A stretch of 16,016 nt of DNA, taken from positions 1 through 16,016 of the forward strand of contig JBGQGY010000090.1 in the NCBI GenBank assembly GCA_041497675.1, given 5' to 3'. The notes below the pieces were generated by a model. It ran no database searches. It worked only from the letters and a program-made list of their open reading frames with translations, and was not told the origin of the DNA. Position numbers and translations under genes: made by a program. Below, piece after piece: positions 3-16,016 of the stretch; positions within the stretch are counted from its first letter, which is position 1; each line of letters opens with the position of its first letter. Origin of the DNA: a bacterium (GTDB lineage: Bacteria > Sysuimicrobiota > Sysuimicrobiia > Sysuimicrobiales > Humicultoraceae).

Positions 3-956
3 GTCGCCGCCCACTGCGGGCGGTGTCACTCTGAGCAGGGGTTTCTGGTGTGGCTGCGGCAACTCCAGGCGGGCAACCCCGGACTCATCGTCAAGCCCGA
101 TGGGTCGCCGGCGGATGTGCCGTATCTTGCGAGTCTCGGGCTGACCCGGTTCAGCGTGAGACCGCAGACCTGCACCACGTGTCATCAGACGGACTACAGT
201 GTGCGCCAGGTTGCGACGACCCCGATGCTGCCCGCCGGATTCCGCGCGATTGGCGTGGGGCTGGGCGCGCAGTGCATGCTCTGCCATAATACCCGGAACG
301 GCGCCGCCATCTGGAACCAGGCCGATCCTGGGCGATATACGGCCCCCCACGTCGCGGCTCAGGCCGACGTGATCATGGGAAAGAACTCCTACTTCCTGGA
401 CTACGGGAACAATTTTATCTCGCCGCACGCGAGCTTTACCGGTGACTCGTGCGTGACCTGTCACATGCGCTTCAGCAAGGAGCCACACACGTTCAAGGTC
501 GATCCGGCGGCCGTCTGCTCGCGCTGCCATGGCGCCGACATGAACGCGTCCCGCGTGCAGGGCTCTACCAAGGCGCAGCTCAATGAACTGGAACGGGCCA
601 TCAAGGCCAGGATCATGGGTGCCAAAGAGCGGATTCGGGTCGTCCGAGCCTGGGATCCCAAATCCGACAACTACACCGACAGCGTGCAGGTCGATCCGGC
701 GTCGATCGCCTCGGTGGACCTGCAGGAGATCCACGGACAGCAGGGCGTCAAGCTAAACCTGAGCGGCGGGCGCGCGCTTTACGCCGAGATGGGTGGACTC
801 AATGATGCCTCCGGCCGGCCGTCGTTTGCCACCAGCGACCCGGTCGTACGGGCAGGCTGGAACTACTACCTGATCCACGGTGACGGCTCATTCGGCGTGC
901 ACAACCCGCGGTTCGTCCGGCAGGTGATCCTGACCACGCTGGACGCGCTGAAGTAG
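3..956 (+). CDS. Multiheme cytochrome c, 5'-truncated (C-terminus resembles NrfA/OcwA/OmhA-like c552 fold)
   Basis: Frame is open from the window edge (VAAHCGRCHSEQGF...). Five CxxCH visible (CGRCH, CTTCH, CMLCH, CVTCH, CSRCH). Helical C-terminus with WNY...DGSFGVHNP motif. TAG stop at 954-956. Confidence 0.85.
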   Translation, partial: VAAHCGRCHSEQGFLVWLRQLQAGNPGLIVKPDGSPADVPYLASLGLTRFSVRPQTCTTCHQTDYSVRQVATTPMLPAGFRAIGVGLGAQCMLCHNTRNGAAIWNQADPGRYTAPHVAAQADVIMGKNSYFLDYGNNFISPHASFTGDSCVTCHMRFSKEPHTFKVDPAAVCSRCHGADMNASRVQGSTKAQLNELERAIKARIMGAKERIRVVRAWDPKSDNYTDSVQVDPASIASVDLQEIHGQQGVKLNLSGGRALYAEMGGLNDASGRPSFATSDPVVRAGWNYYLIHGDGSFGVHNPRFVRQVILTTLDALK

Positions 957-969
957 AACCGGCGGACGA

Positions 970-2292
970 CTATGAGGGGGGCGCCGGGCCGGGCAGGGCC
1001 TTTACCTTGAGATAGAGGCCCAGCGCCAGTACTGCCAGCACTGCCAGCGCCAAGACGAGCCCCCGCCGCCGGAAGTCGATCTCGGCCAGACCGGCCCGCC
1101 CCAGGTCGGCGGCCCGCTGGCTGAGTCCTACGCCTTCGGTCGCCGCGGTCTGGACTTCTCGGAGCGACAGGCTGTGCACCAGGTTGCGCGCCATGATGAG
1201 CTGCGTCTGCGCATCGCTGAGGGGTAGCTTCGCGTCGGTCATGTCCATGCCCGCGTTTTCGGCGCGGGCCACAACCTCAGACGCCGAGGCCATGCTGCTC
1301 TTGAGGTCTTCCAGCGCCGTCCGGATGGTTTTCGCGGCGGTTCCACCCTTACTCGTCTCGGTATGACACTGGACGCAGACGGCCGGCGCGGTTGCTCCCA
1401 CCATGGCATCCGACGGCTGGACGATCCGGTGATTGCTGTGGCAGACCGTGCACTGCGGGAGCCCCATGGCCTGATAGGCTGCTTTGTGGGGGCTGCGAAC
1501 GAAGAGGTCGCGCTGTGAGCTGTGGCACTGCGCGCAGACGTTGGCGACCGACGAGACGCCCGGTGGCACAGCGCCATGGTTGCCGTGGCAGTCGTTGCAG
1601 GCCGGTGCTTGTTTGCTGCCCCGCTTGAGCAACGCATCTGCGTGGATGCTGGCCCGATACTCGGCGTACTGCGTCGTGGCGATCCCGTAGGGCTTCATGT
1701 ACTGCGCGTCGGCGTGACAGCGCGCGCAGGTGGCCGGCACGTTCGTCCGAAACACGGGCGACTTGCTATCGGATACGGCCAAGATCGGGTGTACACCATG
1801 GCAGGAGATACAGGTGGCCACCCGCGTGTCCCCCTTCGCCAGCTTCTGGCCGTGGACGCTGGTGAGGAAACGGGCGACCTCATCGGTCGGGATCTTCGGG
1901 TTGAACTTGCGCATCACTTCTGGGTTGGAATGACAACTCCCGCAGAGCGCCGGGAGTTGCGCGGGCTTCGGCTTGCCCACGAATCCCTTCTTGGGATCCA
2001 TCGCCTCCATGCCCGGAGCCTTGGGATCGCCCCCATGGCAGGCCGAGCACGAGAAGCCGCGCTTCACGTGGATGTCGTCGGCGATGCGCAGCGCCGGCGC
2101 GGCCAGGCGCCCTCCGAGGTTGCGATGGCAGTCGATACAGCTGTCAGATGGCGCGGTCTGGGGCGCTGGAGTGACCGGGGACGCGGGAGGAGCCGCCGGC
2201 GAGGCCGGCGCCGCGGGGGTCGACTGCGGACGGACAACCCAGAGTCCCCCGACCATCAGTGCCAGGAGTGCCCACCGCGTGAAGAGGCGCAT
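970..2292 (-). CDS. Membrane-anchored nonaheme cytochrome c
   Basis: N-terminal hydrophobic signal, Pro/Ala linker, nine CxxCH (CIDCH, CSACH, CGSCH, CISCH, CARCH, CNDCH, CAQCH, CTVCH, CVQCH), Ala-rich helical stalk, C-terminal TM helix (GLVLALAVLAVLALGLYL). Starts 6 bp after the cytochrome b stop. Confidence 0.92.
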   Translation of the reverse strand: MRLFTRWALLALMVGGLWVVRPQSTPAAPASPAAPPASPVTPAPQTAPSDSCIDCHRNLGGRLAAPALRIADDIHVKRGFSCSACHGGDPKAPGMEAMDPKKGFVGKPKPAQLPALCGSCHSNPEVMRKFNPKIPTDEVARFLTSVHGQKLAKGDTRVATCISCHGVHPILAVSDSKSPVFRTNVPATCARCHADAQYMKPYGIATTQYAEYRASIHADALLKRGSKQAPACNDCHGNHGAVPPGVSSVANVCAQCHSSQRDLFVRSPHKAAYQAMGLPQCTVCHSNHRIVQPSDAMVGATAPAVCVQCHTETSKGGTAAKTIRTALEDLKSSMASASEVVARAENAGMDMTDAKLPLSDAQTQLIMARNLVHSLSLREVQTAATEGVGLSQRAADLGRAGLAEIDFRRRGLVLALAVLAVLALGLYLKVKALPGPAPPS

Positions 2293-2298
2293 CGCTCC

Positions 2299-3351
2299 CT
2301 ACGGGACCAGGTATCCGTAGATCGTCATTCCGGCCATGTACAACACGGCGAACACGGCTATGACCAGGGCGATCCGGCGCGCCCGCGTTTTCTGGTCTCC
2401 GCGGTCCAGCAACGGGACGGCCAGCAGCGCCAACGCGGCCAGCGTGAAGCCGAGGATGCCCAGGCGCTCGCCCTCAATGCCCAGCACGTGCGAGGGGATC
2501 AGTTTGAGAGTCTGAAACATGAACACGAAGTACCACTCGGGCCTGATACCCGCGGGGGCGGGCGCGAGCGGATCCGCCTTCTCGCCCACCGGCCACGGCA
2601 GCAGCACCGCAAGCACGGCCAGCACGCCGATCGTTATCACCCAGACGATCGCCTCTCTCAACGCGAACTGTGGGACAAACGGGTGCGCCCGACCCGGTCC
2701 TCGCTCGTCTGCACGGCTCATCCCGTGCAACTGCACAAGGAAGATATGGAGCGCGAGGGTGATCCCTATGAGTGCCGGCAAGATCGCCACGTGGATGCCG
2801 AAGAAGCGGCTCAGCGTGGCTTGCGTGACGTCCTCGCCGCCGCGGAGCAACACGAGCAGGACGTGGCCCACCACAGGCACCGCGCCGACGATTTCCGTCC
2901 CAACTTTCGTCGCGAAATAGGCCAGCGTGTTCCACGGCAGCAGGTAGCCGGTGAAGCCGAAGCCGAGGGTGAGAAAGAGCAGGAGCGCACCCGACATCCA
3001 TGTGAGCTCGCGGGGGCGGCTGTACGCGCGCACAAAGAACGACCCGAACATGTGGGCGAAGACCCAGAAGACCATCAAGTTGGCCGCCCAACTGTGGATC
3101 GACCGCACCAGCCATCCGAAGGGCACCTTGGCCATGATGAACCGCACGCTCTCGTGCGCGGCTTCGGCCGTCGGCCGGTAGTACATGAGCAGGAGGAGTC
3201 CGGTGACCACTTGGATGAGGAACAAGAACAGCGTGATCCCACCGAAGTAGTAGACATACCAATGGCGGTTGATCGGAACGCTCTTGTGGCGCAGGAAGTC
3301 GTCGGCGGCACGCCACTTGAGCCGATCCTCGAGCCAAGTACCGAGACTCAT
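2299..3351 (-). CDS. qcrB: Cytochrome b subunit of a Rieske/cytochrome b complex (unsplit b6+subunit IV type, ~350 aa)
   Basis: FGG...TGLLL..YY.P, RSIH-x13-H, PRELTW.SG, GFTGYLLPW, RFFGIH-x14-H and the Qo-site PEWY motif. Start moved to ATG 3351 (MSLGTWLEDRL), 8 bp after the Rieske stop. Confidence 0.93.
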   Translation of the reverse strand: MSLGTWLEDRLKWRAADDFLRHKSVPINRHWYVYYFGGITLFLFLIQVVTGLLLLMYYRPTAEAAHESVRFIMAKVPFGWLVRSIHSWAANLMVFWVFAHMFGSFFVRAYSRPRELTWMSGALLLFLTLGFGFTGYLLPWNTLAYFATKVGTEIVGAVPVVGHVLLVLLRGGEDVTQATLSRFFGIHVAILPALIGITLALHIFLVQLHGMSRADERGPGRAHPFVPQFALREAIVWVITIGVLAVLAVLLPWPVGEKADPLAPAPAGIRPEWYFVFMFQTLKLIPSHVLGIEGERLGILGFTLAALALLAVPLLDRGDQKTRARRIALVIAVFAVLYMAGMTIYGYLVP

Positions 3352-3359
3352 GGGCGCGG

Positions 3360-3806
3360 CTAGGCTGTGCGGGTGACGACGATGTCGTTCCCCTTGACCG
3401 TCACACCGAACTCCGCGAGCGGCCTGGGCGGCGGGCCCGACAGTACCTGCCCGCTCAGCGGATCGTAATGACCGTCGTGGCATGCGCACCAGATGTGCCC
3501 GAAGTCGCCCCGGTACTGCACCGTGCAGGACAGATGCGTGCACACGGCGCTGAAGGCTTTGTAGGTGCCCTGCGAGGTGTGCACGAGGAGCGCCGGCTTG
3601 CTACCGAAGAGGAAGACTTTGCCCGAGTTCGGCTGCACGTCACCCACCTTGGCGGCCACGATGCTCCCCGCTGAGACTTCCTTGACCTGAGGCGGGATCA
3701 AGTACCGGATGAGAGGATACAGGACCGTGCCGGCGAGGGCGGCCAGGCCGGCGCCGAGCAGATAGTCGGCCAGCGTTCTGCGGGTGATCCGCGGGGCTTT
3801 CACCAC
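3360..3806 (-). CDS. qcrA: Rieske [2Fe-2S] subunit of the Rieske/cytochrome b complex
   Basis: TRRTL twin-arginine followed by a TM anchor. Box I CTHLSC, box II CACHDGHY, C-terminal GPPPRPL. Confidence 0.93.
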   Translation of the reverse strand: MVKAPRITRRTLADYLLGAGLAALAGTVLYPLIRYLIPPQVKEVSAGSIVAAKVGDVQPNSGKVFLFGSKPALLVHTSQGTYKAFSAVCTHLSCTVQYRGDFGHIWCACHDGHYDPLSGQVLSGPPPRPLAEFGVTVKGNDIVVTRTA

Positions 3807-3818
3807 ACGTGCCCTGTT

Positions 3819-6800
3819 CTAGGCCTTGACCACCCTGACCTTCGTATCGTAGAAGACCGCACTCCCCCCGATCTGGTCGGTGAGGCAGGTATTCGCAAGC
3901 TGAGGGTCGGTGCGGAAGACGGCATTCGCGTGAACCCCGGTCCGCCGGCGCGGATCGCCCTTGACGACCCGTCCGTCAATGACGACATCGGAAGCGCCAC
4001 TGGCCCAGTGCCCGTAGCCGACTGCGAAAGTGATGACGCCGGGCCGAATGCCTTCGGTGAGTTTGATCTTGCCGACGATCGGAATCCGCCGGCCGTTTTT
4101 CAGGTCCCACTCACCGCGCGGGTTCGTCGCTGATGAGATCCGCACACGGTCACCGTCGTTGAGGTTCCGCGCTTTCGCATCCTTCGCGTGCATGTAGATC
4201 AGGTTCTCCGGCAGGATGCTCGTCAGCCAGTAGTTGGTGATCGTTCGGCTCTTCGTGTGGAGGATGACGCGGTTCGTAATGAGGTTCAGATCGTAGCCCG
4301 CTGCGTCGTCGCGAATGGGCCGGCCCTGGCTGTCCGCCACGGGATGATACCCAGGGGTCCCAGAGAAGTACTTGCCGCTGAACGCGTTCTTGCTCGTGGC
4401 CACCTTCTCGAGGTAGAGGTTGACCAAGTTGCCGTAGTGACCTCGCAGCTTCTCGCCGTCGAAGGCCCCCTCGTATTCCATGAAGCGACCGCCGCGGTTC
4501 AGGACGTACACGATCTTCTTCCACCAGCGCTCGCCCGCGGCCGCCCGCCAGCGGTCTGGATCGAAGACCGATCTGGGCAGATGCTGACGGGCCGCCAGAA
4601 AGATGCGTTCCTCCTCCGGGGAGGCGTCTGGCACCTCGTCCCCGGCCCGGTCTCCGAACGCGACGTTCGCCGCTTCGCGAACGTAGAAGTCATCGGGCCG
4701 CAGGAGGTCTTGCCCGGGGCCGAACGCGTCGTTGCCAAATCCCGGAAGTCCGAGTTTCTCGGCGATCCCCAGCATCAACGCTTCAAACGACGCCGGCATC
4801 TCCTCGCCGAAGACACGCACTGACCGCGTCAGGGGCGCGATGACGGGGCTGTAGGCCGGCGCTACCTTGGGGAGCACGCTCGGGTGCGTCCCGTGGAAAT
4901 CCCACCGCTCGAGGTAGGTGACGTCGGGGAAGATGTAGTCGGCGTACATGGACGTCGGTCCGATCAAGATGTCACTGGCGATGACCAGCGGGATCTTGGT
5001 GGGATCGGCCAGGATCTCGATGTTGGTATGACCCGCCGGCAGCGAGTAGGTGGGCGCGGCCGTGTACAACAGGACGATCTTGATCGGGTAGGGATAGCCT
5101 TCGGCCGCCGACGGCAGGGTCTCCTGGTAGATGTCGCTCGCCATGGGGTACCACTGGCGCTTCGCCGGGTAGCCTTTGAACAGGGTCGAGTCTTCGTACT
5201 TCTCCTCCGTCCGGATCAGTGGCGTGCCAAACGGGGTGTTCCGGTTGGGGTGCATCGAGCGGACGTTGAACGGCGCGCCGGGCCGGCCACCGGCCTGGTC
5301 GTAGGCGCTCGCCCACGCCGATCCGCCCCTCCAGTCATAGTTGCCCACGAGCGTATTCAATGCGTACCACGTGAAGCAGTTGTAGAAGCCGTTCGTATGC
5401 TGGCTGCAGCCGCGGTGGAGATCGACGGCGGCCCGCTTGCCGTGGCTGGTGAACTCCTTGGCCAGTTCAACGATGTCCTCTGCGGACACACCCGCCAGCG
5501 CGGCCCAACCGGCGATGGAGCGCATGCTCGCCTCCTCGTACAGGAGCTGCATCGCGCTCTTCGCCTGGATGCCGCCGACGAATGTGTCGACCAGCAGGTC
5601 GCCCTCGACTGTGGTGCGGGTGTCGTAGGGATCAACGGCAACCGGCCTCCCATCCTTCAGGACGACGAAGAGATCGCGGTCGGAGAGCCCGACCTCAGAC
5701 GCCCGCAGAAACTTCCCAGGGTGTCCCTCCTCGATCTTCACCAACCATGAGGCGTTGCTCCACGTCGGTTCGCCGTCGGCCGTGGCCGCGGCACGGTTGG
5801 CATTGGCCAGGTACTTCGAATCGAACCGCCGTTGCTCGATGACCCACCGGATCATGCCGAGCGCGATAGCGGCCTCGGTGCCTGGCTTGTTGGGCAACCA
5901 CTTCCACGCCTTGCTGGCCGACCGCGAGAATCGGGGATCGACGACCGCGATCTTGAGGCGACCGGTGACGATACCTTTCGTCAGCTTGCCGGCGCGCAGC
6001 GGCGGGCCGTAGTTGGCTTCCAGGGGATTGGCGCCGACGAAGATGAGAAACTCGGCGTGCTCCGTGTCCGCCTGCCAGTAGAACTTGCGGCCCCCGGTCC
6101 ATGTGCCGCCGCTGTATTGGTCGCTCATCGCCTTGCCTGTGAAGTAGAGCGACCCCTGGCAGACCGTGGTGTGGCCGAGCCGGTTGATCGTCCCGAAGGC
6201 GTCGCCGGCGAACCGGGTCACGAAGTCGCCGCGGCCGCCCTTCTCCCGACCCTTCCAGTAGACGAACTGGTTGTTCTTGGGCCCGAGATCCGGATGGTCG
6301 GGGTCGATCAGCGTGTGGAGATGATCCCGGTACTTGCGCTTGAACTCCTCGACGGTCATCCTTTTCTGCTTGACCACCGCGACATCCGCCGCCATCGACC
6401 GGGCCACGTTCGGGTCGCGGAGTGCGTACACGTCCTTGAAGCCTTCAATCACACGGTTCTCCTCGCCAGGGATATTGGCGAAGAGCCGGCCGCCCGTGAC
6501 GATCTCGCTGATGGCCTGATCGAAGGGGATGGTCTTCCACTTGTTCGATCCTCTGGGACCGGCCCGCTTGAGCACCGTGCGGATCCGATATGGGTCGTAG
6601 ACGGTCTGGATGCCCGCCTGGCCCTTGGGACAGATCGTCCCGGTCACAGGTGCCAGGTCTCCGATCGGCGTCGTGTAGGGAAGATGCGGAGCCATGGTCC
6701 ACGGGCTCAGCGGATTGCCGTCGATCTTGACCGCCACGCCCCGGTCGAGGCTCACCTTGATCCCGCACCCCGTGTTGCACTGCAGGCAGACGGTGTAGAG

Positions 6801-6971
6801 GGTATTCTCCGGTTTGCCGTAGGGATACGCAGCAGTACCGTCCGCGGCCTCAGCAGGGAGTATGGTGCGCAGGGTGTTCGAGATCCGGCTGTAGGCAGCC
6901 GCGCCTCCGAGGAGGGCGGCCGAGGCGAACAACCCGCGGCGGCTTACCCTTTCCGATGTCTTCCGTGGCAT
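3819..6971 (-). CDS. Tat-exported Mo/W-bisPGD oxidoreductase catalytic subunit, TtrA/SrdA (tetrathionate reductase-like) family
   Basis: 1050 aa; SRRGLF Tat motif; FS0 motif CLQCNTGC-x44-CPKG; DPYR...LKRAGPRG..KW; likely Mo ligand Cys in GHTTVCQG; DYIFPD.TYLERW; C-terminal molybdopterin dinucleotide-binding domain (GYGHW). GGGAGGGAG RBS upstream. Substrate cannot be determined from sequence. Confidence 0.88.
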   Translation of the reverse strand: MPRKTSERVSRRGLFASAALLGGAAAYSRISNTLRTILPAEAADGTAAYPYGKPENTLYTVCLQCNTGCGIKVSLDRGVAVKIDGNPLSPWTMAPHLPYTTPIGDLAPVTGTICPKGQAGIQTVYDPYRIRTVLKRAGPRGSNKWKTIPFDQAISEIVTGGRLFANIPGEENRVIEGFKDVYALRDPNVARSMAADVAVVKQKRMTVEEFKRKYRDHLHTLIDPDHPDLGPKNNQFVYWKGREKGGRGDFVTRFAGDAFGTINRLGHTTVCQGSLYFTGKAMSDQYSGGTWTGGRKFYWQADTEHAEFLIFVGANPLEANYGPPLRAGKLTKGIVTGRLKIAVVDPRFSRSASKAWKWLPNKPGTEAAIALGMIRWVIEQRRFDSKYLANANRAAATADGEPTWSNASWLVKIEEGHPGKFLRASEVGLSDRDLFVVLKDGRPVAVDPYDTRTTVEGDLLVDTFVGGIQAKSAMQLLYEEASMRSIAGWAALAGVSAEDIVELAKEFTSHGKRAAVDLHRGCSQHTNGFYNCFTWYALNTLVGNYDWRGGSAWASAYDQAGGRPGAPFNVRSMHPNRNTPFGTPLIRTEEKYEDSTLFKGYPAKRQWYPMASDIYQETLPSAAEGYPYPIKIVLLYTAAPTYSLPAGHTNIEILADPTKIPLVIASDILIGPTSMYADYIFPDVTYLERWDFHGTHPSVLPKVAPAYSPVIAPLTRSVRVFGEEMPASFEALMLGIAEKLGLPGFGNDAFGPGQDLLRPDDFYVREAANVAFGDRAGDEVPDASPEEERIFLAARQHLPRSVFDPDRWRAAAGERWWKKIVYVLNRGGRFMEYEGAFDGEKLRGHYGNLVNLYLEKVATSKNAFSGKYFSGTPGYHPVADSQGRPIRDDAAGYDLNLITNRVILHTKSRTITNYWLTSILPENLIYMHAKDAKARNLNDGDRVRISSATNPRGEWDLKNGRRIPIVGKIKLTEGIRPGVITFAVGYGHWASGASDVVIDGRVVKGDPRRRTGVHANAVFRTDPQLANTCLTDQIGGSAVFYDTKVRVVKA

Positions 6972-6986
6972 GTCGCTCTCCCTCCC

Positions 6987-7949
6987 CTATCGGCCGTGGC
7001 AGGTCTGGCAGGATTCCGGCGTGCTGACTGGCATCGTCTGGCGCGAGGCTGCGCCAACGTAGAAGATCCTCGGCTCGGTGCCGCGGCTCTCGTTGACGCG
7101 CATCGTCTTCTCCCGCGACCGCAACTCAGACACCAGGCTCTCGATGTCGTTGGCGTCGCCGAAGTACATCGCCCCGCCGATGCACGTCGCCACGCACGCG
7201 GGCAGCAGGCCTGCCTCAATCCGCTGGAGGCAGAAGTGGCACTTGCGGCCGGCGCCGATGGGCAGCGCCCCGTCAATGCGGGTCCAGACCTTGCCGTATT
7301 CCACATGGGGACGCGTCTCGTAGGCCTGGCGGGCCGGGGTACCGTCGGTCCAGTAGCGACCCTCATCGAAGTAGAGCGCCTTGTAGGGACAGGCCTTCCG
7401 GGCTGCGACGAAAGCCTTCCGGCCAAACTTCTGGTAGTCGACGGTGACGATCCCGTCGGGACGCTTGGCCATCGAGCCGGGACTGACCGCGTTGGCGGCC
7501 GGGAGGCAGGGTGGCTTGTCGCACTGCTGGCAGTTCGTCGGCATGAATGACGCCTGCACGTTGGGGAACTCTCCGGATTCCACTTTGGGTACGGTCCGGT
7601 AGGAGACACCCGGCGGCAGGCCGTTCTCTGCGGTGCAGGCGACCGTGCACGCGTCGCAGCCGATGCACCGGCGGGCGTCGATGACCATGGCCCACTTGCG
7701 CTGCTCGACCGGTTTCGCCAGCGTTCGGTAGAGGTCGCGCTGCATCCTCACGATCTGATGCTCACCGGGTTTGGGATCTCGAATGGCCGTCGGCACAGGA
7801 GGAGCGGCATTCGCCTGTCGTCGCGGGACCGCCCCGGTCAGGACACTCACACTGCCCAGAGCAATCGCAGCCGAAGTGCCCTTCTTGAGAAAAGCGCGCC
7901 GCTTCATGGGCGGCGCCTCCTGAACTGGGCCTGCAGTTTCCCTCGCCAC
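6987..7949 (-). CDS. TtrB/DmsB-like Fe-S electron transfer subunit, atypical (three clusters predicted; C-terminal CxxCH)
   Basis: KRRAFLK Tat motif; WAMVID..RCIGCDACTVAC; CQQCDKPPC; CPY; KCHFC..RI..GLLPACVATC; GTEPRIFY. GTG 7949 and ATG 7907 both have a GGAGG RBS. Confidence 0.9.
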   Translation of the reverse strand: MARETAGPVQEAPPMKRRAFLKKGTSAAIALGSVSVLTGAVPRRQANAAPPVPTAIRDPKPGEHQIVRMQRDLYRTLAKPVEQRKWAMVIDARRCIGCDACTVACTAENGLPPGVSYRTVPKVESGEFPNVQASFMPTNCQQCDKPPCLPAANAVSPGSMAKRPDGIVTVDYQKFGRKAFVAARKACPYKALYFDEGRYWTDGTPARQAYETRPHVEYGKVWTRIDGALPIGAGRKCHFCLQRIEAGLLPACVATCIGGAMYFGDANDIESLVSELRSREKTMRVNESRGTEPRIFYVGAASRQTMPVSTPESCQTCHGR

Positions 7950-8102: not shown

Positions 8103-8276
8103 GATCGCTCGGTCCGAGGGAGCAGCGCTTCTCGCAAATTCCTGACAGGGGCAATCAACCACTTTCTGACTCCCAATCAAATCGGGGCAGATGGGCTCAA
8201 GATCGGTCGGTGGACTGATGACAGGGGGCACCGGGAGCGCTAATATGCTTATGAGCGCATATAAGCATAACCTGGT
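8103..8276 (+). repeat. Direct repeat copy 1 (~174 bp)
   Basis: Aligns with 8533-8707. 47 bp are perfectly identical (8114-8160 vs 8544-8590); few differences over the first ~130 bp, more divergent at the 3' end. Confidence 0.95.
8218..8269 (+). promoter_or_regulatory. Sigma70-like promoter overlapped by a putative ArsR operator
   Basis: ATGACA (8218-8223)-17 bp-TAATAT (8241-8246). Palindromes ATATGC-N8-GCATAT (8243-8262) and TATGCTTAT-N8-ATAAGCATA (8244-8269). Confidence 0.65.
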
Positions 8277-8327
8277 CAGGGCCGGTGAGGCGGACACACC
8301 TGTACCTTGGCGGAGGGAGGAGCGACT

Positions 8328-8645
8328 ATGAACTGCTACGAGTGCGCGTTGGCCAACGAGACGGTTGCGGCCGTCGCGGTTTGCGGGCACTGCGGGGTTG
8401 GGCTCTGTCTCCAGCACTTGCGCAAGGCGCAGGTGTACCGTGTCGGTGGCACCCTTTACGGCTGCGAGCATCAGCTCGCCGAGGTTGGCCGACCGTGGCT
8501 CGGTGCGAATGCCGCTGAGCCGTCCGGTCGTAGATCGCTCGGCCCGAGGGAGCAGCGCTTCTCGCAAATTCCTGACAGGGGCAATCAACCGCTTTCTGAC
8601 TCCCGATCAAATCCGAGGGCAGACGGGCTCAAGATCGGTCGGTGA
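8328..8645 (+). CDS. Small Cys/His-rich protein, DUF2180-like
   Basis: Strong RBS (GGAGGGAGGAG) before ATG 8328. Pattern MNCYEC...AVAVCGHCGVGLC.QH...GCEH. The last ~37 codons run into repeat copy 2. Confidence 0.7.
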   Translation: MNCYECALANETVAAVAVCGHCGVGLCLQHLRKAQVYRVGGTLYGCEHQLAEVGRPWLGANAAEPSGRRSLGPREQRFSQIPDRGNQPLSDSRSNPRADGLKIGR

Positions 8646-8707
8646 ACTGATGACAGGGGCACCGCGACGTTAGTGTGTGAATGAGCGCATACAAGCATTA
8701 CCCTGGT
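8533..8707 (+). repeat. Direct repeat copy 2 (~175 bp), ending 1 bp before the arsR ATG
   Basis: Near-identical to 8103-8276. Carries the degenerate promoter/operator ATGACA...TAGTGT and GTGTGT-N8-GCATAC. Confidence 0.95.
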
Positions 8708-8708
8708 T

Positions 8709-9143
8709 ATGAGAGCGATCGTTGAGGCCTTTAAGGCTCTTTCCGACCCGACGCGGGTCAGGGTCATCGCCTTGCTCGCGGAGGTGCCGGACGGTGCCTG
8801 CGTATGCGAGCTCGTGGACGCCCTGCGGCTTCCTCAGTATCAGGTGTCCAGGCATCTGGCTGTGCTGCGCGCCGCGGCCCTGGTCGATACGCGTCGGAAA
8901 GGGACGTGGGTCTTCTACGGGATGCGGGCCGACCTGCCTGAGCCTGTTGCAGGTATCGTAGGCGCCGTTGGCGGGGGAACCCCGGATGAGGTCATGACTG
9001 AGGATCGCCGGCGGCTTCGCCAGCGGCTGCAACTGCGCGAGGATGGGGCCTGTGTGGTGGGATATGATCCAGTGCGATCGTTCCGAGAGATCATCCCGCT
9101 CCGACTGGTGCCCGCGACGAAAGGGAGGTCAAGCCGTGCCTGA
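8709..9143 (+). CDS. arsR: ArsR/SmtB family As(III)-responsive repressor
   Basis: FKALSDPTR.RV, metal-binding ACVCEL, VSRHLAVLR HTH, RKGTWVFY wing; heads the ars cluster. Confidence 0.9.
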   Translation: MRAIVEAFKALSDPTRVRVIALLAEVPDGACVCELVDALRLPQYQVSRHLAVLRAAALVDTRRKGTWVFYGMRADLPEPVAGIVGAVGGGTPDEVMTEDRRRLRQRLQLREDGACVVGYDPVRSFREIIPLRLVPATKGRSSRA

Positions 9144-9775: not shown

Positions 9776-10936
9776 ATGCGGAAGAAAACCACGGCTGACC
9801 TGGCTCCACGTCCCGAAGGTGCGAGTAAGTCGCGAGAGACGTTGCTTACCCCGATAGTAGCGGCGAGAAAGACCCTCGGTCCGTTCGAACGGTATCTGAG
9901 CATCTGGGTCGGCGCGTGCATGGTTGTCGGGGTCTTCCTGGGGAAACTGCTGCCCGCGCTCACCGATGGGCTCCGGCGGCTGGAGTTCGGTGCGGGCAGC
10001 CAGATCAACCTCCCGATCGCGGTCCTCATCTGGCTAATGATCATCCCGATGATGATGAAGGTCGACTTTGCCGCAATCCGGAACGTCGGCAGGCGGCCGC
10101 GAGGGCTGTTCGTGACCCTCTTTGTCAATTGGTTGGTCAAACCGTTCTCGATGGCGTTCATCGCGTGGCTCTTCTTCCGCCACATCTTCGCGGCTTGGAT
10201 CGCCCCCACTGAGGCGGACCAGTATATCGCCGGGGCCATCATCCTGGCCGCGGCACCCTGCACCGCCATGGTCTTTGTGTGGAGTTATCTCACGGACGGC
10301 GACCCCGGCTACACACTCATGCAGGTCTCCGTCAACGATCTCATCATGCTCGTTCTCTTCGCGCCCATCGTGCGATTTCTCGTCAGCGGTGCCTCTTCGC
10401 TCGAGGTCCCTTTGCGGGTGCTGCTGTACTCGGTCGGCATCTTTATCGTGATACCGCTGGTGCTGGGCGCCTGTCTCCGAAGCTGGTTCGTCCGGCGGCG
10501 CGGCGTGGTGTGGTTCACCGAGGCGCTGCTGCCCCGCTTTGCACCGGTCAGCATGATGGCATTGCTCGCCACGCTGGTCCTGATCTTCGCCTTCCAGGCC
10601 GACAATATCACGAGCAAGAGCCTCCACGTGATCTTGATCGCGATTCCCATTCTTATTCAAGTGTATTTCAACTCCTCGCTGACGTACGGCCTGATGAGGC
10701 TGTTCCGGGTTCAGCACGCGATTGCTGCGCCGGGCGCGTTGATCGGGGCAAGCAACTTCTTCGAGCTTGCGGTCGCAACAGCCATCGCCCTCTTCGGCCC
10801 CGGCTCGGGCGCCGCCCTGGCCACCGTCGTCGGCGTCCTGATTGAGGTTCCGGTGATGCTCTCAGTGTGCTCGGTGTGCAACCGCACCCGGCACTGGTTC
10901 CCGGCCGGTACCGGCGAGGCGGCAATCAGTCCTTGA
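9776..10936 (+). CDS. acr3: ACR3 family arsenite efflux transporter
   Basis: FERYLSIWV, NLPIAVLIWLMI.PMM, NWLVKPFSM, APCTAMVFVWS with the essential Cys, GASNFFELAVA, GVLIEVPVML. Exact start uncertain. Confidence 0.96.
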   Translation: MRKKTTADLAPRPEGASKSRETLLTPIVAARKTLGPFERYLSIWVGACMVVGVFLGKLLPALTDGLRRLEFGAGSQINLPIAVLIWLMIIPMMMKVDFAAIRNVGRRPRGLFVTLFVNWLVKPFSMAFIAWLFFRHIFAAWIAPTEADQYIAGAIILAAAPCTAMVFVWSYLTDGDPGYTLMQVSVNDLIMLVLFAPIVRFLVSGASSLEVPLRVLLYSVGIFIVIPLVLGACLRSWFVRRRGVVWFTEALLPRFAPVSMMALLATLVLIFAFQADNITSKSLHVILIAIPILIQVYFNSSLTYGLMRLFRVQHAIAAPGALIGASNFFELAVATAIALFGPGSGAALATVVGVLIEVPVMLSVCSVCNRTRHWFPAGTGEAAISP

Positions 10937-10974
10937 GGGAAAGGCCCGGCCTACGACGAACAAAATCCACCAAC

Positions 10975-11412
10975 GTGCAGAGGCAGCGGATCCTTTTCCT
11001 GTGCACCCATAATTCTGCCCGCTCACAGATGGCGGAAGGTCTGCTCCGGACCGCGGCCGGCGACCGCTTCGAGGTTCACAGCGCAGGGACGATCGCGACA
11101 TCCGTGCGACCGGAGGCCATCCGGGTGATGGCCGAACTCGGCATCGACATCACGGGCCACGAAAGCAAGACTGTCGACCGTTTCCTGAAGCAACCGTTCG
11201 ATTGGGTGATTACGGTCTGCGATGACGCGGCGGAAGCCTGTCCGATGTTTCCTGGCCCGGGACATCTGTTACATTGGTCGCTGCCCGATCCCGGCGCGGT
11301 CCAGGGCAAAGAGAATCAGCGGTTCGCGGTGTTTCGGGGGGTGCGGGATCGGTTGCGCCGGCTAATCACCGACTTCATCACCCAATACGGCAGTGGGACA
11401 TTCGTGCCGTGA
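10975..11412 (+). CDS. arsC: Thioredoxin-coupled arsenate reductase (LMW-PTP fold)
   Basis: ILFLCTHNSARSQMAEG P-loop, resolving pair VITVCDDAAEACP, HW.LPDP. Start GTG 10975, or TTG 10933 overlapping the acr3 stop. Confidence 0.93.
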   Translation: MQRQRILFLCTHNSARSQMAEGLLRTAAGDRFEVHSAGTIATSVRPEAIRVMAELGIDITGHESKTVDRFLKQPFDWVITVCDDAAEACPMFPGPGHLLHWSLPDPGAVQGKENQRFAVFRGVRDRLRRLITDFITQYGSGTFVP

Positions 11413-11590: not shown

Positions 11591-12331
11591 CTAGTCGGTT
11601 GGGGACTCGCCTTCGGCCTGCGCCTCGGGGGGGGATGGTGGAGGCGCGAGCCCGCGTGCTTCCAGGTCCTCGAACTCCCCCGCGTGTTCGTGACGCAGCC
11701 GTTCCACGGGGATCCTACCAGTGAACATCGCCGGATCCATAGGGAAGATGTTCGGCCGGAAGTGCGCGTTGTAGAAGTGCCAGATGATCACGGCAAACAG
11801 CGCGAGAAGCGCTTCGCCGCCGTGCACAACCCGCGAGGCTGGAATGACGACCCCCGGAAGCCACCGGGTCACGATGATCGGGAACCACATGATCAGTCCG
11901 GTGGCGACCATCAGCGCCGTGCCCCACACGACCGCCCAGTACTCGAACTTCTGGCGGTAGTCGAACCGGCCGAAGCGGGGACGTTCGCGTCGACGGCCCG
12001 CCAGAAAGACGGCATCGTCGATCAGATCCCGCACGTCCGCACGTGAGAAGTGCATGTCGTGGCGCCGCACGGGCCGCTTCCGGCCGGCCACCACGGCTAC
12101 AAGGTGGTACAGCCCCTGTGCGATGAGAATCACCGCGAGCGTCCGGTGAATGCGCCGGGTGGTCTCGATCCCGCCGAACATAGCGATCAGCCGCCCGGCC
12201 CAGTCGGCAGCCGAGTACTTCTGCGGCAGACCCGTCAGCGCCAAGATGTTGAACGATAGCAGCAGCACAAAGTGCTCAACCCGCTGCGCCAGCGAGAACC
12301 GTTCGACCGTGGGCTCTCCCCGGCGCATCAT
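11591..12331 (-). CDS. Diheme cytochrome b, FdnI/CbcL membrane-domain type
   Basis: RFS..QRVEH...LALTGLP, RRIHR, RFDYRQKFEYWA..WG...M..TG..MWFP, VVHGGEALLA...IWHFYNAH, EH. ATG 12331 overlaps the upstream TGA (ATGA). Confidence 0.9.
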   Translation of the reverse strand: MMRRGEPTVERFSLAQRVEHFVLLLSFNILALTGLPQKYSAADWAGRLIAMFGGIETTRRIHRTLAVILIAQGLYHLVAVVAGRKRPVRRHDMHFSRADVRDLIDDAVFLAGRRRERPRFGRFDYRQKFEYWAVVWGTALMVATGLIMWFPIIVTRWLPGVVIPASRVVHGGEALLALFAVIIWHFYNAHFRPNIFPMDPAMFTGRIPVERLRHEHAGEFEDLEARGLAPPPSPPEAQAEGESPTD

Positions 12332-13209
12332 GCCCGCCCACCCCATCGGGTCACGGCCCAATGCCAGAGATCCAGCCCCGTCAGGACGACGAGCACACCG
12401 ACGACGCCCGGAATGAGGATGAGGTAGAACAGCTGCGCCAGGTAGACGAGCGTCGAGTGGCGCAGGCTCGGTATCCGATGCTCGGTCCAGGCCGTCGCGA
12501 AGAGCGGGCCGGCTTTGGCGTGGCACCGGCGGCAGGTGGTCAGGACATTGGCCGGCGCCACCGGCGATTCGGGATCCGCCACGCGCCTGACGGCGTGGGC
12601 GGTGTGGCAGTCGTAGCAGACCGCCGATGGCGACCGGACGGCGGGCGTGACCAGACGGTAGAGCCTCGTGGTCACACCGTGGAACTCTTCGACGTAGGCC
12701 TGGTAGACGGGACGTAGCCCGTACCGCCGCATCACCGCGTCGTCGGCGTGGCAGTTGCCGCAGGTCTCGGGGATGCTGTTACGGAAGGCTGCCGACTTGG
12801 GTTTGATGACTGCGTGGGTCGTGTGGCAGGACGTGCACAGCGGGACGTCGCCCAGGCCCATCCGCAGGCCCCGGCCGTGGACGCTCAGCTCATACATCTT
12901 GGACTGGTCCGCGTGACAGGTCGCGCAGACCTGCTGGGCCACGACTCGATAGGATCGGCGCGAGGTGGCCGTCCGGGCCGGATGAGGATACCCAGTGTGG
13001 GTCGTGTGACAGGTCGTGCAGGTGAAATCTTTGTGGACGGACGCCGCGAATTTCTTGGAATTGATCGTGACGTCCAGCGCTCCGTCAGGGAAGGTGATCG
13101 CGGTCCCTTCGACCTGATGACACGCCAGGCAGGCTTCGTTATCCTGTGCGACGGCTGGCTGTGGGGAACCGAGTATCCACGCGGCGACAAGCAGGATCAG
13201 CCAGTACAC
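12328..13209 (-). CDS. Heptaheme cytochrome c with C-terminal TM anchor (CbcL periplasmic-domain-like)
   Basis: Signal peptide (AVA|Q); seven CxxCH (CLACH, CTTCH, CATCH, CTSCH, CGNCH, CYDCH, CRRCH); C-terminal hydrophobic helix; translationally coupled to the cytochrome b. Confidence 0.92.
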   Translation of the reverse strand: MYWLILLVAAWILGSPQPAVAQDNEACLACHQVEGTAITFPDGALDVTINSKKFAASVHKDFTCTTCHTTHTGYPHPARTATSRRSYRVVAQQVCATCHADQSKMYELSVHGRGLRMGLGDVPLCTSCHTTHAVIKPKSAAFRNSIPETCGNCHADDAVMRRYGLRPVYQAYVEEFHGVTTRLYRLVTPAVRSPSAVCYDCHTAHAVRRVADPESPVAPANVLTTCRRCHAKAGPLFATAWTEHRIPSLRHSTLVYLAQLFYLILIPGVVGVLVVLTGLDLWHWAVTRWGGRA

Positions 13210-13953: not shown

Positions 13954-13969
13954 TAGTTCCTTCGGACTA
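13954..13969. promoter_or_regulatory. Imperfect palindrome, candidate NarL-family operator
   Basis: TAGTTCCTTCGGACTA overlaps the regulator's stop codon, ~100 bp upstream of the REC/cytochrome genes. Confidence 0.4.
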
Positions 13970-14617
13970 CGACTCTGGTGGGGTGATGATACCTTCCCGG
14001 AGGGCGTACATGACCGCCTGGACACGATTCTGCAGGTGGAGTTTTTCGAGGATGTTCCGCAGGTGGTTCTTCACGGTATTTTCAGAGATCTGGAGGTGCC
14101 GCGCGATCTCTTTGTTGGCGTCTCCCCGAGCCACGAGCTCGAGCACCTGCCGCTCGCGGGCCGTGAGCGTCGGGCCCGGTCGCGGCGTGGGGTTGGCAAA
14201 TTCGTGAAGGATCTTGGCCGCCATGGGCGGCGCAAGGGGAGCCTCGCCGCGCTGGACCTGTTGGAGGCAGGCGATCAGATCGTCGGGGTCAATGTTCTTG
14301 AGCAGGTAGCCCTGCGCTCCGCCCTTGACGGCGGCAAAGAGATCCTCCTCGCTCTCAGAGACCGTCAGGATCACAATACGCACGTGTGGCATTTCCTCTT
14401 TGATCCGGCGGGTGGCTTCGAGGCCGCCGATGCCCGGCATCCGGACGTCCATGAGAATGACGTCCGGCATCAATTCCCGAGCCCTGTCGATCACCTGCTG
14501 GCCGTCGCCGGCCTCCCCGACGACCTCGATATCATCTCGGCCGGCCAACAGCCCGGCCAGGCCCCGGCGGAAGAGCACGTGGTCGTCGGCCAGCAGCACA
14601 CGGATCTTCTCGGTCAC
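13967..14617 (-). CDS. NarL/FixJ family response regulator (REC + LuxR HTH)
   Basis: VLLADDH..FRRGL, DVILMDVRMP, GYLLK, LTAREREQ-like LT.RE.QVL..VA.G..NKEIA..L.ISE.TVKNH..NILEKL. RBS GAGGAGGAG. Confidence 0.96.
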   Translation of the reverse strand: MTEKIRVLLADDHVLFRRGLAGLLAGRDDIEVVGEAGDGQQVIDRARELMPDVILMDVRMPGIGGLEATRRIKEEMPHVRIVILTVSESEEDLFAAVKGGAQGYLLKNIDPDDLIACLQQVQRGEAPLAPPMAAKILHEFANPTPRPGPTLTARERQVLELVARGDANKEIARHLQISENTVKNHLRNILEKLHLQNRVQAVMYALREGIITPPES

Positions 14618-14646: not shown

Positions 14647-16016
14647 TCACGCGACCGGGACCACCAGCGCCACCGTGGTGCCCTGTCCCGGCGCGGAGGT
14701 CACCTCCAGAGCGCCCCCGATGCTCTCGGCGCGCTCGCGCATCGTCTCCAGACCGAACCGCTCGCCCGTTTCCGCCCGCACGGCCGCGATGTTGAACCCG
14801 CACCCGTCGTCGGTCACCCGCACCAGAAGCCGATCGTCTTCGGCCGCGAGCGTCACGGTCACGGCGCCGGCCCGGGCGTGCTTGCGAACGTTGGTCAGCG
14901 CTTCCTGGACGATCCGAGTCACCTGGACTGCGGCCACGGCGGGCAGCGGCGGAATCGGATCCCGCACATCGTAGACTACCGGCAGTCTGGTCTGATCGCG
15001 GAACAGGCTGATCTGTGTCCTGAGCGCCGTCACGAGGTCTTCCCGCGCCCCGGAGATTTTCAGTCCCAGGATAGCATGGCGGACCTCATCGTAGGCGTCA
15101 CGGATCGTTTGACGCATCTGGGCCAACTCTTCCCCGGCCTCGCGTGTTCTCCCGGCTGTGACCAGGTCTTCGACAATCTTGGCCTTGAGGTTGAGGAACC
15201 CTAAGCTCTGCCCAAGACTGTCGTGCATCTCGCGTCCCAGCCGGTCACGCTCCTCCAGGATCGCGAGGCTCTGCACCTGCTCGTACAGGCGCGCGTTCTC
15301 GATAGCGATGGCCGCCTGATTGGCCATGCGGCTCAGCAGGTGGACATCGTCGTCGCTTGTCGGCTGCACCCGGCGGAAGGCGATGACCAGCGTCCCGATG
15401 GTCTTGCCCCGGGTCGCGATCGGCACTGCCGCGTGTGTCCGCAGTTCTTCGTGCCGAACCAGAGGATCGAGCTCGTGCGTAATGTGCGAGTTGGTGAGGT
15501 AGTCGTCGACTACCAGCGGCTGACCGGTGAGCATGACCTGACCGGCGACGCCTTGCCCGGGCGCGAGTTCCGCACCCATCAGCGCGTGTCCGCGGAGGCC
15601 GCTTGCCGCGCGCATGATCAGCCGGCCGCGGCCCTCATCCAACAGGCTCAGCATCGCCGCGTCGGCGCCCAACAACTCGCGGGCGCTGGCCACAACCATG
15701 TCGAGGACCCGCCCGACATCGGACAGGATGGTAATCTCGGTACCCAGGCGGTAGAGGGCTTCGGCTTCCCGGCGTCTTTCGGCTGTCTCCTGGAACAGCC
15801 TGGCGTTCTCGACCGCCACGCCCACCTCCTGGGCCACGGTCGACAACAGGTTTGATTCGGCCTCGGCATAACGTGCCCCGGGCCGTCCAACGATCGTCAG
15901 CTCACCGAGGAGCCGGTCCTTCGCCCGTACCGGCACTCTGATGAACGGCCTGGCGTCTCCTCCATCTGAGAACGCGATCACGCCGGCGGCCACAGCCCCG
16001 CGATCGAGCTTGCCAA
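14647..16016 (-). CDS. GAF-domain sensor histidine kinase, HisKA_3 (NarX/NarQ/DosS-like), 5'-truncated
   Basis: Two GAF-type repeats ending in AVENARLF and AIENARLY; H-box ERDRLGREMHDSLGQ; QEALTNVRKHA, DDGCGF, FGL..MRERA. Frame stays open to the window end. Confidence 0.95.
   Translation of the reverse strand, partial: GKLDRGAVAAGVIAFSDGGDARPFIRVPVRAKDRLLGELTIVGRPGARYAEAESNLLSTVAQEVGVAVENARLFQETAERRREAEALYRLGTEITILSDVGRVLDMVVASARELLGADAAMLSLLDEGRGRLIMRAASGLRGHALMGAELAPGQGVAGQVMLTGQPLVVDDYLTNSHITHELDPLVRHEELRTHAAVPIATRGKTIGTLVIAFRRVQPTSDDDVHLLSRMANQAAIAIENARLYEQVQSLAILEERDRLGREMHDSLGQSLGFLNLKAKIVEDLVTAGRTREAGEELAQMRQTIRDAYDEVRHAILGLKISGAREDLVTALRTQISLFRDQTRLPVVYDVRDPIPPLPAVAAVQVTRIVQEALTNVRKHARAGAVTVTLAAEDDRLLVRVTDDGCGFNIAAVRAETGERFGLETMRERAESIGGALEVTSAPGQGTTVALVVPVA

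Follow-up and report, generated by a model that had tools for sequence, protein, structure and literature searches.

A Ttr-like molybdoenzyme with a putatively heme-tagged iron-sulfur subunit, encoded between two candidate quinol:cytochrome c modules in an arsenic gene context in Humicultoraceae

The window analysed here, a stretch of 16,016 nucleotides that makes up the entire contig C90 (GenBank JBGQGY010000090.1) of a 3.97-Mb, 272-contig genome bin from the bacterial family Humicultoraceae, raises the question of how a molybdoenzyme related to tetrathionate reductase (Ttr) receives its electrons when no membrane subunit of the usual type is encoded with it. Five minus-strand genes are at issue: those for an iron-sulfur (FeS) subunit (B, 6987-7949), a molybdenum (Mo) catalytic subunit (A, 3819-6971), a Rieske protein (3360-3806), a cytochrome b (2299-3351) and a nonaheme cytochrome c (970-2292). 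The first-pass annotation, made from the letters alone, took them for a candidate respiratory complex in which the Rieske protein, cytochrome b and the nonaheme cytochrome stand in for the membrane subunit TtrC. Our analysis points elsewhere. With about even confidence, we propose a heme-tagged, anchorless Ttr-like arsenate reductase that would draw menaquinol electrons through neighbouring membrane cytochrome modules. Three features that the annotation had passed over bear on this proposal: arsenic resistance (ars) genes, a heptaheme/diheme-b module at 11591-13209, and an altered B subunit with three clusters and a CxxCH motif. Loci, genomes and contigs other than the window are given below by our working numbers (L, G and C).

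The arrangement itself is sound. The open reading frame (ORF) listing bears out the five co-directional genes, with gaps of 15, 12, 8 and 6 bp from B through A, Rieske and cytochrome b to the nonaheme gene, a spacing that fits a single transcript. The longest ORF of the cytochrome b gene opens at 3543; orthologs align from their residue 1 at the Met at 3351, and the start was set there. Every gene junction is spanned by contigs from four other deoxyribonucleic acid (DNA) runs, and the arrangement is therefore not an assembly artefact; a chimeric assembly is ruled out on the same ground. The order B-A-Rieske-cytochrome b-nonaheme was moreover found again in four other genomes from three genera, so that the neighbourhood is a recurring one. 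The annotation had seen no NrfD, PsrC or TtrC gene in the cluster, which agrees with the Pfam search, where NrfD (PF03916) had no match on contig C90. The same genome does hold three NrfD genes, on contigs C113, C26 and C189. Weak A-like matches adjoin the NrfD genes on C113 and C189.

The A subunit (1050 aa) contains the Molybdop_Fe4S4 (FS0), Molybdopterin and Molydop_binding domains of Pfam, a twin-arginine translocation (Tat) motif, SRRGLF, and an N-terminal CxxCxxxC...C motif. In an alignment to 6cz7 and 2vpw, its Cys271 falls on the Cys of the ArrA "HSSVC" stretch. The best NCBIfam family is TtrA (NF011567), which matches residues 217-1040 with 471 bits against a cut-off of 1750; the ArrA model (NF041714) gives 99.1 bits against a cut-off of 1600, and the NarG model 16.8 bits. 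A is therefore kin to TtrA at the level of the lineage and not a TtrA equivalog, and in this sense the TtrA-clade placement of the first-pass annotation stands, with the lineage motifs in its favour. By its predicted features, A is a Tat-exported, Cys-ligated catalytic subunit with a Mo-bis(pyranopterin guanine dinucleotide) cofactor (Mo-bisPGD), belonging to the lineage of TtrA, SrdA and the alternative arsenate reductases named by Wells et al. (PMC7331816, PMC10100899; these and the other articles cited are drawn on in extract). The family is large, with more than 3,112 proteins at E <= 1e-20, the best 120 of which are all at least 57% identical, and its sources include Armatimonadota, Rokubacteria, Methylomirabilales, Bipolaricaulota, Tectomicrobia and Zixibacteria.

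The neighbourhoods of A were surveyed at 80 genome loci and 80 metagenome loci. In 28 of the genome loci, the gene immediately preceding A is NrfD (27 times in the order B-NrfD-A, once cut), its identity having been checked by Pfam on two representatives. Among the metagenome loci, 66 of 80 have NrfD matches next to A, which makes canonical ttrBCA the commonest layout. In the phylogeny of A, a FastTree tree of 77 A subunits and 3 outgroup paralogs that is made up of rows of at least 950 aa and does not contain Salmonella TtrA, SrdA, PAE1265 or the PSR-1 protein, the window protein groups with members of its own bacterial family in a 7-row clade, which is nested in a 25-row clade. Both clades are without NrfD and stand on starred branches, and NrfD presence changes at least 8-10 times over the tree. 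Consequently, the homologs are not all linked to nrfD, and the closest relatives do without it, as the annotation's reading had required of them. By the same tree, the lack of NrfD goes further back, and extends much more widely, than the association with Rieske/cytochrome b. Of the 80 genome loci, 11 have at least one gene with three or more CxxCH motifs no more than 3 kb from A. We note that at L016 and L032, from NC10 and Myxococcota bins, NrfD-less or heme-tagged B-A pairs lie beside an MtrA-like decaheme cytochrome and an MtrB/PioB porin, which hints that some family members may be wired to an outer-membrane electron conduit.

The FeS subunit is a variant form. B matches Fer4_11 in Pfam, and its best NCBIfam family is TtrB, at 133 bits, below the cut-off of 416. 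It has a Tat-type N-terminus (KRRAFLK) and a C-terminal extension. In an alignment of B subunits from the 69 loci with a usable B (27 with NrfD, 42 without), it retains 12 conserved cluster cysteines, enough for three [4Fe-4S] clusters, versus the 16 Cys and four clusters of the TtrB/SrdB type. A152 stands where group II would have its last Cys, and F175, K178 and A183 occupy the first three Cys positions of group III. With these four Cys, the 12-Cys type would have lost one [4Fe-4S] cluster. At the very end of the protein stands a putative heme c site, CQTCH, followed by GR and the stop (6996..7010, minus strand; terminus ...PESCQTCHGR). All 27 loci with NrfD have 16 cluster Cys and no such tail. 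Among the 42 without NrfD, 31, the window included, combine 12 Cys with a C-terminal CxxCH within the last 7 residues, two have 12 Cys with the tail incomplete or absent, and nine have 15-16 Cys and no tail. The C-terminal CxxCH tail was likewise found in none of 49 NrfD-type metagenome loci. By analogy with Fdh-N, from which we take the group III cluster to be the one nearest the membrane subunit, B would have swapped its membrane-facing cluster for a covalent heme that accepts electrons from c-type cytochromes. In the NrfD-less B of L019, L032 and L229, the tails end in His with one or both Cys lost (...LCKSQHP, ...AAAYHT, ...TTSVHT); these may be degenerate tags or non-covalent heme binders.

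Which cytochromes could serve as partners? Directly downstream of A, the Rieske protein matches PF00355 with 49.1 bits (cut-off 20.3), shows the boxes CTHLSC ... CACHDGHY, carries an N-terminal transmembrane (TM) anchor (TM_PetC) and has 20 orthologs; the NCBIfam model for PetC of the b6f complex gives 74.8 bits, below its cut-off. The cytochrome b matches PF00033 with 168.5 bits and PF00032 with 43.2 bits, which corresponds to b6 fused to subunit IV, and its translation holds RPEWY, H-x13-H in helix B and H-x14-H in helix D, that is, four heme-ligand His. Its best matches in the Protein Data Bank (PDB) are cytochrome b6 (E 1e-55), and Tyr-Phe occupies what we take to be the position of the heme-ci Cys of b6. 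The nonaheme cytochrome has a signal peptide, nine CxxCH motifs that are invariant in 16 orthologs, a helical C-terminal region and a C-terminal TM helix. Its family counts more than 3,007 proteins at E <= 1e-10; its gene invariably follows that of cytochrome b in the loci centred on the latter, and P0188, a homolog of 765 aa, is a fusion with a cytochrome b. The nonaheme protein is thus likely, from sequence and gene order, the cytochrome c subunit of the Rieske/cytochrome b module.

The distribution of this module was followed through 94 genomes of the phylum CSP1-3/Sysuimicrobiota (labelled Armatimonadota by NCBI), in which the unpublished genomes G017 and G024 enter only as tally rows without a cytochrome b ortholog. 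Orthologs of the cytochrome b (59-83% identity) occur in 20 other genomes, which puts the module in 21 of the 94. B-A stands directly before Rieske in four of the 20 cytochrome b loci (L130, L131, L132, L134), and in two of these, L132 and L134, a heptaheme cytochrome and a b561-type cytochrome b precede B, followed by A and Rieske. In three further loci (L129, L135, L136), the heptaheme-b561 pair is joined straight to Rieske-cytochrome b-nonaheme, with no B-A. Nine loci show a co-directional pentaheme-Rieske-cytochrome b-nonaheme order, two (including L143) have Rieske-cytochrome b-nonaheme alone, and two are too short for judgement. The module is a self-standing unit, independent of B-A. Nor does it serve as the sole complex III of the organism, a role that is ruled out by a second Rieske/cytochrome b locus with two tandem cytochrome b genes in the genome of the window (G000, contig C11:15581-18210).

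Two of these loci carry additions of their own. At L143:11698-16352 (G039), a triheme gene comes after the module, and then another Mo enzyme, which shares 26% identity with A and is accompanied by FeS and NrfD genes of its own; here the module adjoins a molybdoenzyme for a second, independent time. At L132:11833-13296 (G026), a 487-aa EB_dh protein (PF09459) that has no counterpart in the window follows the nonaheme gene. PF09459 is the heme-b-binding domain of the gamma subunits of type II dimethyl sulfoxide (DMSO) reductases.

A second set of possible partners lies upstream of B, on the same strand. A heptaheme cytochrome c with a signal peptide, seven CxxCH motifs and a C-terminal TM helix (12328..13209, minus strand) adjoins a diheme cytochrome b of the FdnI/HydC type (11591..12526, minus strand; PF01292, found by Pfam and NCBIfam), the true start of which is probably near ORF residue 54-56. 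The heptaheme gene keeps its place beside b561 in L129, L132, L134, L135, L136, L148 and L163, and the order heptaheme-b561-B-A is also that of L148 and L163. By analogy of architecture with the Geobacter complex CbcBA, this pair is a candidate second quinol:cytochrome c module.

Between the pair and B lies an island of ars genes, all on the plus strand. It comprises an ArsR-family regulator that points away from B (8709..9143, Pfam), an arsenite efflux transporter of the ACR3 type (9776..10936; TIGR00832 371.5 bits, cut-off 282.8), and an ArsC of the thioredoxin type with a low-molecular-weight protein tyrosine phosphatase (LMW-PTP) fold (10867..11412; domain from ORF residue 42; TIGR02691 128 bits, below 174). 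The closest A homolog (89% identity, G020), encoded on another contig than its module, is divergently paired with arsR and an ArsP-type permease. Across the family, Acr3, ArsC, an ArsM-like methyltransferase or ArsP occurs near A in 17 of the 80 genome loci, and in 30 of the 80 when ArsR and PhnD-like binding proteins are counted as well, with representatives of the neighbour genes checked by Pfam. A PhnD-like protein lies near A in 11 of the 80, a histidine kinase (cluster c4) in 12, a LuxR-type regulator (cluster c3) in 15 and a predicted outer-membrane porin, one representative of which belongs to a phosphate porin family, in 16. In loci such as L037, L044, L046 and L049, the PhnD-like protein, the kinase and the regulator form a group ahead of B, and in diderm lineages B has phosphate-porin-like genes as neighbours. 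With short contigs common among the loci, these figures should be taken as lower bounds. The 20 loci centred on cytochrome b, which serve as a small control, are all free of ars genes. Melioribacter roseus has been described with comparable surroundings: its Ttr-type locus is preceded by an "ArrTSR" sensor set and arsRPCB, and ttrA transcripts rise on arsenate. Proposals that Ttr-like enzymes reduce arsenate have also been made for Pyrobaculum, Anaeromyxobacter PSR-1 and Limisphaera (PMC5492636, PMC13608581). With ars genes in the window, at the 89% homolog and in 17 of 80 loci, and with this literature context, the substrate is read as arsenic, most likely arsenate.

How does the system compare with known ones? 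Similar to Salmonella TtrBCA and Bacillus selenatarsenatis SrdBCA, the window has a catalytic subunit of the Cys-ligated Mo-bisPGD lineage of about 1050 aa and an FeS gene before A; TtrBCA and SrdBCA, however, possess an NrfD-type C subunit and a four-cluster B, whereas the window has no C, three clusters plus CxxCH, and an arsenic context. Shewanella ArrAB is a soluble arsenate reductase of two subunits, neither of them in the membrane, fed by the multiheme quinol dehydrogenase CymA, which is encoded elsewhere. We know of no heme motif in ArrB, and Shewanella ArrA belongs to a different clade from the window A (ArrA model 99 bits versus 1600). The alternative arsenate reductases (Pyrobaculum aerophilum PAE1265, Melioribacter roseus MROS_1076, Anaeromyxobacter sp. 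PSR-1, Limisphaera 4302-co), with which the comparison is by description, are of the same lineage and share ars genes and PhnD-like sensor/kinase/regulator sets with the window family (PMC5492636, PMC13608581, PMC7331816). They are described as ABC complexes, and in the extracts none is reported with Rieske/cytochrome b or a heme-tagged B.

Other systems offer likenesses on the side of electron delivery. In haloarchaeal pNar (NarGH, the Rieske protein NarB and the cytochrome b NarC), an outward-facing Mo enzyme is encoded with Rieske/cytochrome b, and a Q-cycle-like coupling has been proposed; pNar differs in its Mo family and in having no multiheme cytochromes, only NarC co-purified with NarGH, and the coupling is unproven in both systems (PMC7754194, in extract). 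The Nap cluster of Caldithrix abyssi combines Rieske/cytochrome b genes with a periplasmic Mo enzyme that has no quinol dehydrogenase of the usual kind, and a multiheme go-between has been proposed, likewise from the genome; there, however, the enzyme is NapA and the go-between is the soluble tetraheme NapM, as opposed to an anchored nonaheme protein (PMC5317091). The heptaheme CbcA of Geobacter sulfurreducens, which has a C-terminal helix as its anchor and a b-type subunit as its partner, shows the same layout as the upstream pair of the window; CbcBA and CbcL are alternative quinol oxidases that feed one periplasmic cytochrome pool, for extracellular acceptors and not for a Mo enzyme (PMC13591261). 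In the extracts of the literature on such gene clusters, we found no description of a Rieske/cytochrome b arrangement for the Ttr-like lineage, or of a heme-tagged B. The main text of the phylum description (PMC11604079) does not contain the terms Rieske, tetrathionate, molybdopterin or cytochrome b.

Taken together, these features suggest the following path. In Humicultoraceae, the B-A cassette sits inside an older multiheme cytochrome cluster with its own two-component system, and in the window the cassette, accompanied by the ars island, stands between the heptaheme/diheme-b module upstream and the Rieske/cytochrome b-nonaheme module downstream. Menaquinol would be oxidised by one or both of these quinol:cytochrome c modules, whose electrons would pass through the multiheme cytochromes to the heme and the three FeS clusters of B and, from the clusters, over Mo to As(V). 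The data do not decide between the two donors; for Rieske/cytochrome b speak the 12-bp coupling and the recurring adjacency of A and Rieske.

The cassette appears to be mobile within this frame. An A homolog (E <= 1e-100) is found in 24 of the 94 genomes of the phylum, in 12 of the 21 with the module versus 12 of the 73 without it, the genomes being related and hence non-independent samples. Where both are present (n=12), they are adjacent in five (G000, G007, G026, G027, G032), and in G028 adjacency is undecidable from the contig ends. In comparison with the window, the metagenome locus L148 has a heptaheme cytochrome 97% and a b561 94% identical, a B 77% and an A 80% identical, and no ars island between b561 and B. 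Because the frame is thus 94-97% identical and B-A 77-80%, an exchange of the cassette by recombination inside the conserved frame is suggested.

Several results weigh against a B-A pair wired specifically to its present neighbours, and against the reading of its heme tag. The module stands without adjacent B-A in at least 14 of the 18 cytochrome b loci of judgeable length, and the two lie apart in 6 of the 12 genomes that have both (G020, G005, G006, G092 and G050, as well as G014, at 15 kb). At L010, a clean deletion of 2376 bp, as measured against L009 (nucleotide identity of 92-94% on either flank), has removed the Rieske cluster domain, cytochrome b and most of the nonaheme gene and left heptaheme-b561-B-A intact; at L011 and L012, B-A is followed by MoeA/MobB genes only. 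The spacer between A and Rieske is 12 bp in the window and 77-121 bp in its relatives, which resembles the 103-155 bp between b561 and Rieske in clusters without B-A, so that an internal promoter before Rieske is possible. On the A tree, tail and NrfD loss are related through three changes only, and an independent-pairs test found 6-8 usable pairs, of which 1-2 differed in the tail trait (b), with a median p = 1 and no power; the mutual exclusivity of tail and NrfD therefore rests on raw counts and few events. Finally, the As(V)/As(III) couple lies at about +60 to +135 mV, close to where a menaquinol-type Rieske centre would be expected to lie, which would leave little driving force for a Q-cycle onto arsenate.

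Since module and B-A each occur alone, we view the cassette as plugged into a cytochrome network and not as part of a dedicated five-subunit complex. The latter, proposed at the outset by the first-pass annotation with Rieske/cytochrome b in the place of TtrC and Q-cycle-coupled oxyanion reduction, appears quite unlikely. The gaps between the five genes leave no room for a terminator, the same order returns in the four other genomes, and the heme motif of B would suit cytochrome partners; the arrangement and spacing on which the annotation based its energy-coupling scheme are real. An exclusive partnership with Rieske/cytochrome b is not supported: most module-bearing genomes have no adjacent B-A (the module occurs in 21 of 94, with B-A adjacent in 5), B-A persists without the module at L010, three genomes have the heptaheme-b561 pair joined to Rieske with no B-A in between, a second candidate donor lies upstream, and the potentials would leave a Q-cycle little drive. 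In the A tree, moreover, the loss of NrfD precedes the association, which argues against a substitution for TtrC. A related possibility keeps arsenate as the acceptor and has a Tat-exported B, with a covalent heme c for the membrane-proximal cluster, dock on the nonaheme subunit, giving Q-cycle-coupled arsenate respiration in Humicultoraceae; this we consider doubtful. Complex prediction with residues 60-320 of B and 46-400 of the nonaheme protein, run with separate alignments and without controls, returned a score of 0.00 in both runs, which carries no weight for or against this docking. The heptaheme and diheme-b proteins might instead form the true quinol dehydrogenase for AB, with the Rieske module serving others and its adjacency reflecting a shared regulon or insertion site. 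It is in their favour that heptaheme-b561-B-A survived the L010 deletion, that the pair directly precedes B in L132, L134, L148 and L163, and that Geobacter CbcBA works at low potentials (PMC13591261), better suited to arsenate than a high-potential Rieske chain. In the window, however, b561 and B have the ars island between them, whereas only 12 bp lie between A and Rieske, the pair is joined to Rieske without B-A at L129, L135 and L136 and hence is no more specific for AB than the Rieske module, and its likeness to CbcBA is one of architecture only; on balance we find this account unlikely.

Direction and substrate can be questioned in the same way. AB might oxidise arsenite and pass electrons through the heme and the multiheme cytochromes to an oxidase, with Rieske/cytochrome b operated backwards to supply reduced menaquinone to CO2 fixation. 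The uphill pathway of Acidithiobacillus ferrooxidans is a precedent for such reverse operation, an anchorless, cytochrome-coupled design is typical of periplasmic dehydrogenases, and ArsR and the ars genes are compatible with either direction. The phylum has, in addition, been described as chemoautotrophic and living in arsenic-rich hot springs (PMC11604079). Against this, all Ttr-like members with physiological data in the extracts are tied to arsenate reduction, none of them having this type of B (PMC5492636, PMC13608581), and both neighbouring modules are of quinol-oxidising kinds, which makes reverse flow decidedly improbable. The acceptor could also be another chalcogen or oxyanion, such as tetrathionate, selenate, thioarsenate or antimonate, with the ars genes present by chance or co-selection. 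The lineage is catalytically versatile (PMC10100899), TtrA is the best NCBIfam match, and the in-cluster B-A of L132 and L134 has no ars genes in the 20 kb covered. We judge this, too, to be improbable, given that ars genes, PhnD-like sensor sets and phosphate-type porins recur across the family and that the closest homolog is itself divergently paired with arsR-arsP. The reading that we prefer is thus still that of the heme-tagged, anchorless arsenate reductase fed through its neighbouring cytochrome modules.

The remaining features of the window belong mostly to the older cytochrome cluster or to the region between B and arsR. At the left end, a pentaheme cytochrome c gene (3..956, plus strand), truncated by the contig start, runs towards the nonaheme gene; more distant relatives have it at the head of the module, in the order pentaheme-Rieske-cytochrome b-nonaheme. 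At the right end are a LuxR-type response regulator (13967-14617, minus strand, Pfam) and a truncated histidine kinase with a GAF domain (14647-16014, minus strand, Pfam), and this pair stands upstream of the cytochrome cluster irrespective of B-A (L129, L132, L135). Between B and arsR, a 170-bp element is present in two plus-strand copies (8103-8272 and 8533-8702), about 95% identical and 430 bp apart. Each copy terminates just upstream of a plus-strand gene (a DUF2180 ORF and arsR, respectively), and the terminal stretch of copy 1 contains the palindrome TATGCTTAT-N7-ATAAGCATA, which is degraded in copy 2. The repeat is possibly a duplicated promoter/operator, perhaps an ArsR site facing the divergent B-A operon. 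The small Cys-rich ORF between the copies (8307-8645, plus strand; probable ATG at 8329; DUF2180 match with E 2.4e-7), whose 3' end overlaps the second copy, may encode a metal- or arsenic-binding protein. Rfam at its gathering threshold had no match within the window, and pattern scans of the window for promoters and terminators were at chance level (2 promoter-like hits versus 2.2 expected, and 10 terminator-like hits versus 8.1).

Arsenic respiration and oxidation govern the mobility of arsenic in hot springs and aquifers, and arsenic surveys usually count arrA, arxA and aioA only. The Ttr-like family to which the window enzyme belongs is large and spread across many uncultured phyla, and part of it appears to have exchanged its anchor for a putatively heme-tagged FeS subunit that would rely on cytochrome networks. 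Placed between two modules of quinol-oxidising kinds, the window enzyme makes it testable how much energy could be conserved on a low-potential acceptor such as arsenate and whether a Rieske/cytochrome b complex can serve one. Should the doubtful Q-cycle docking on the nonaheme subunit prove true, this would be the first arsenate reductase driven by Rieske/cytochrome b, with a yield of H+ per electron above that of NrfD- or CymA-type systems. In sum, the locus offers an example of modular respiratory-chain evolution, in which a terminal-enzyme cassette enters and leaves a conserved cytochrome cluster.

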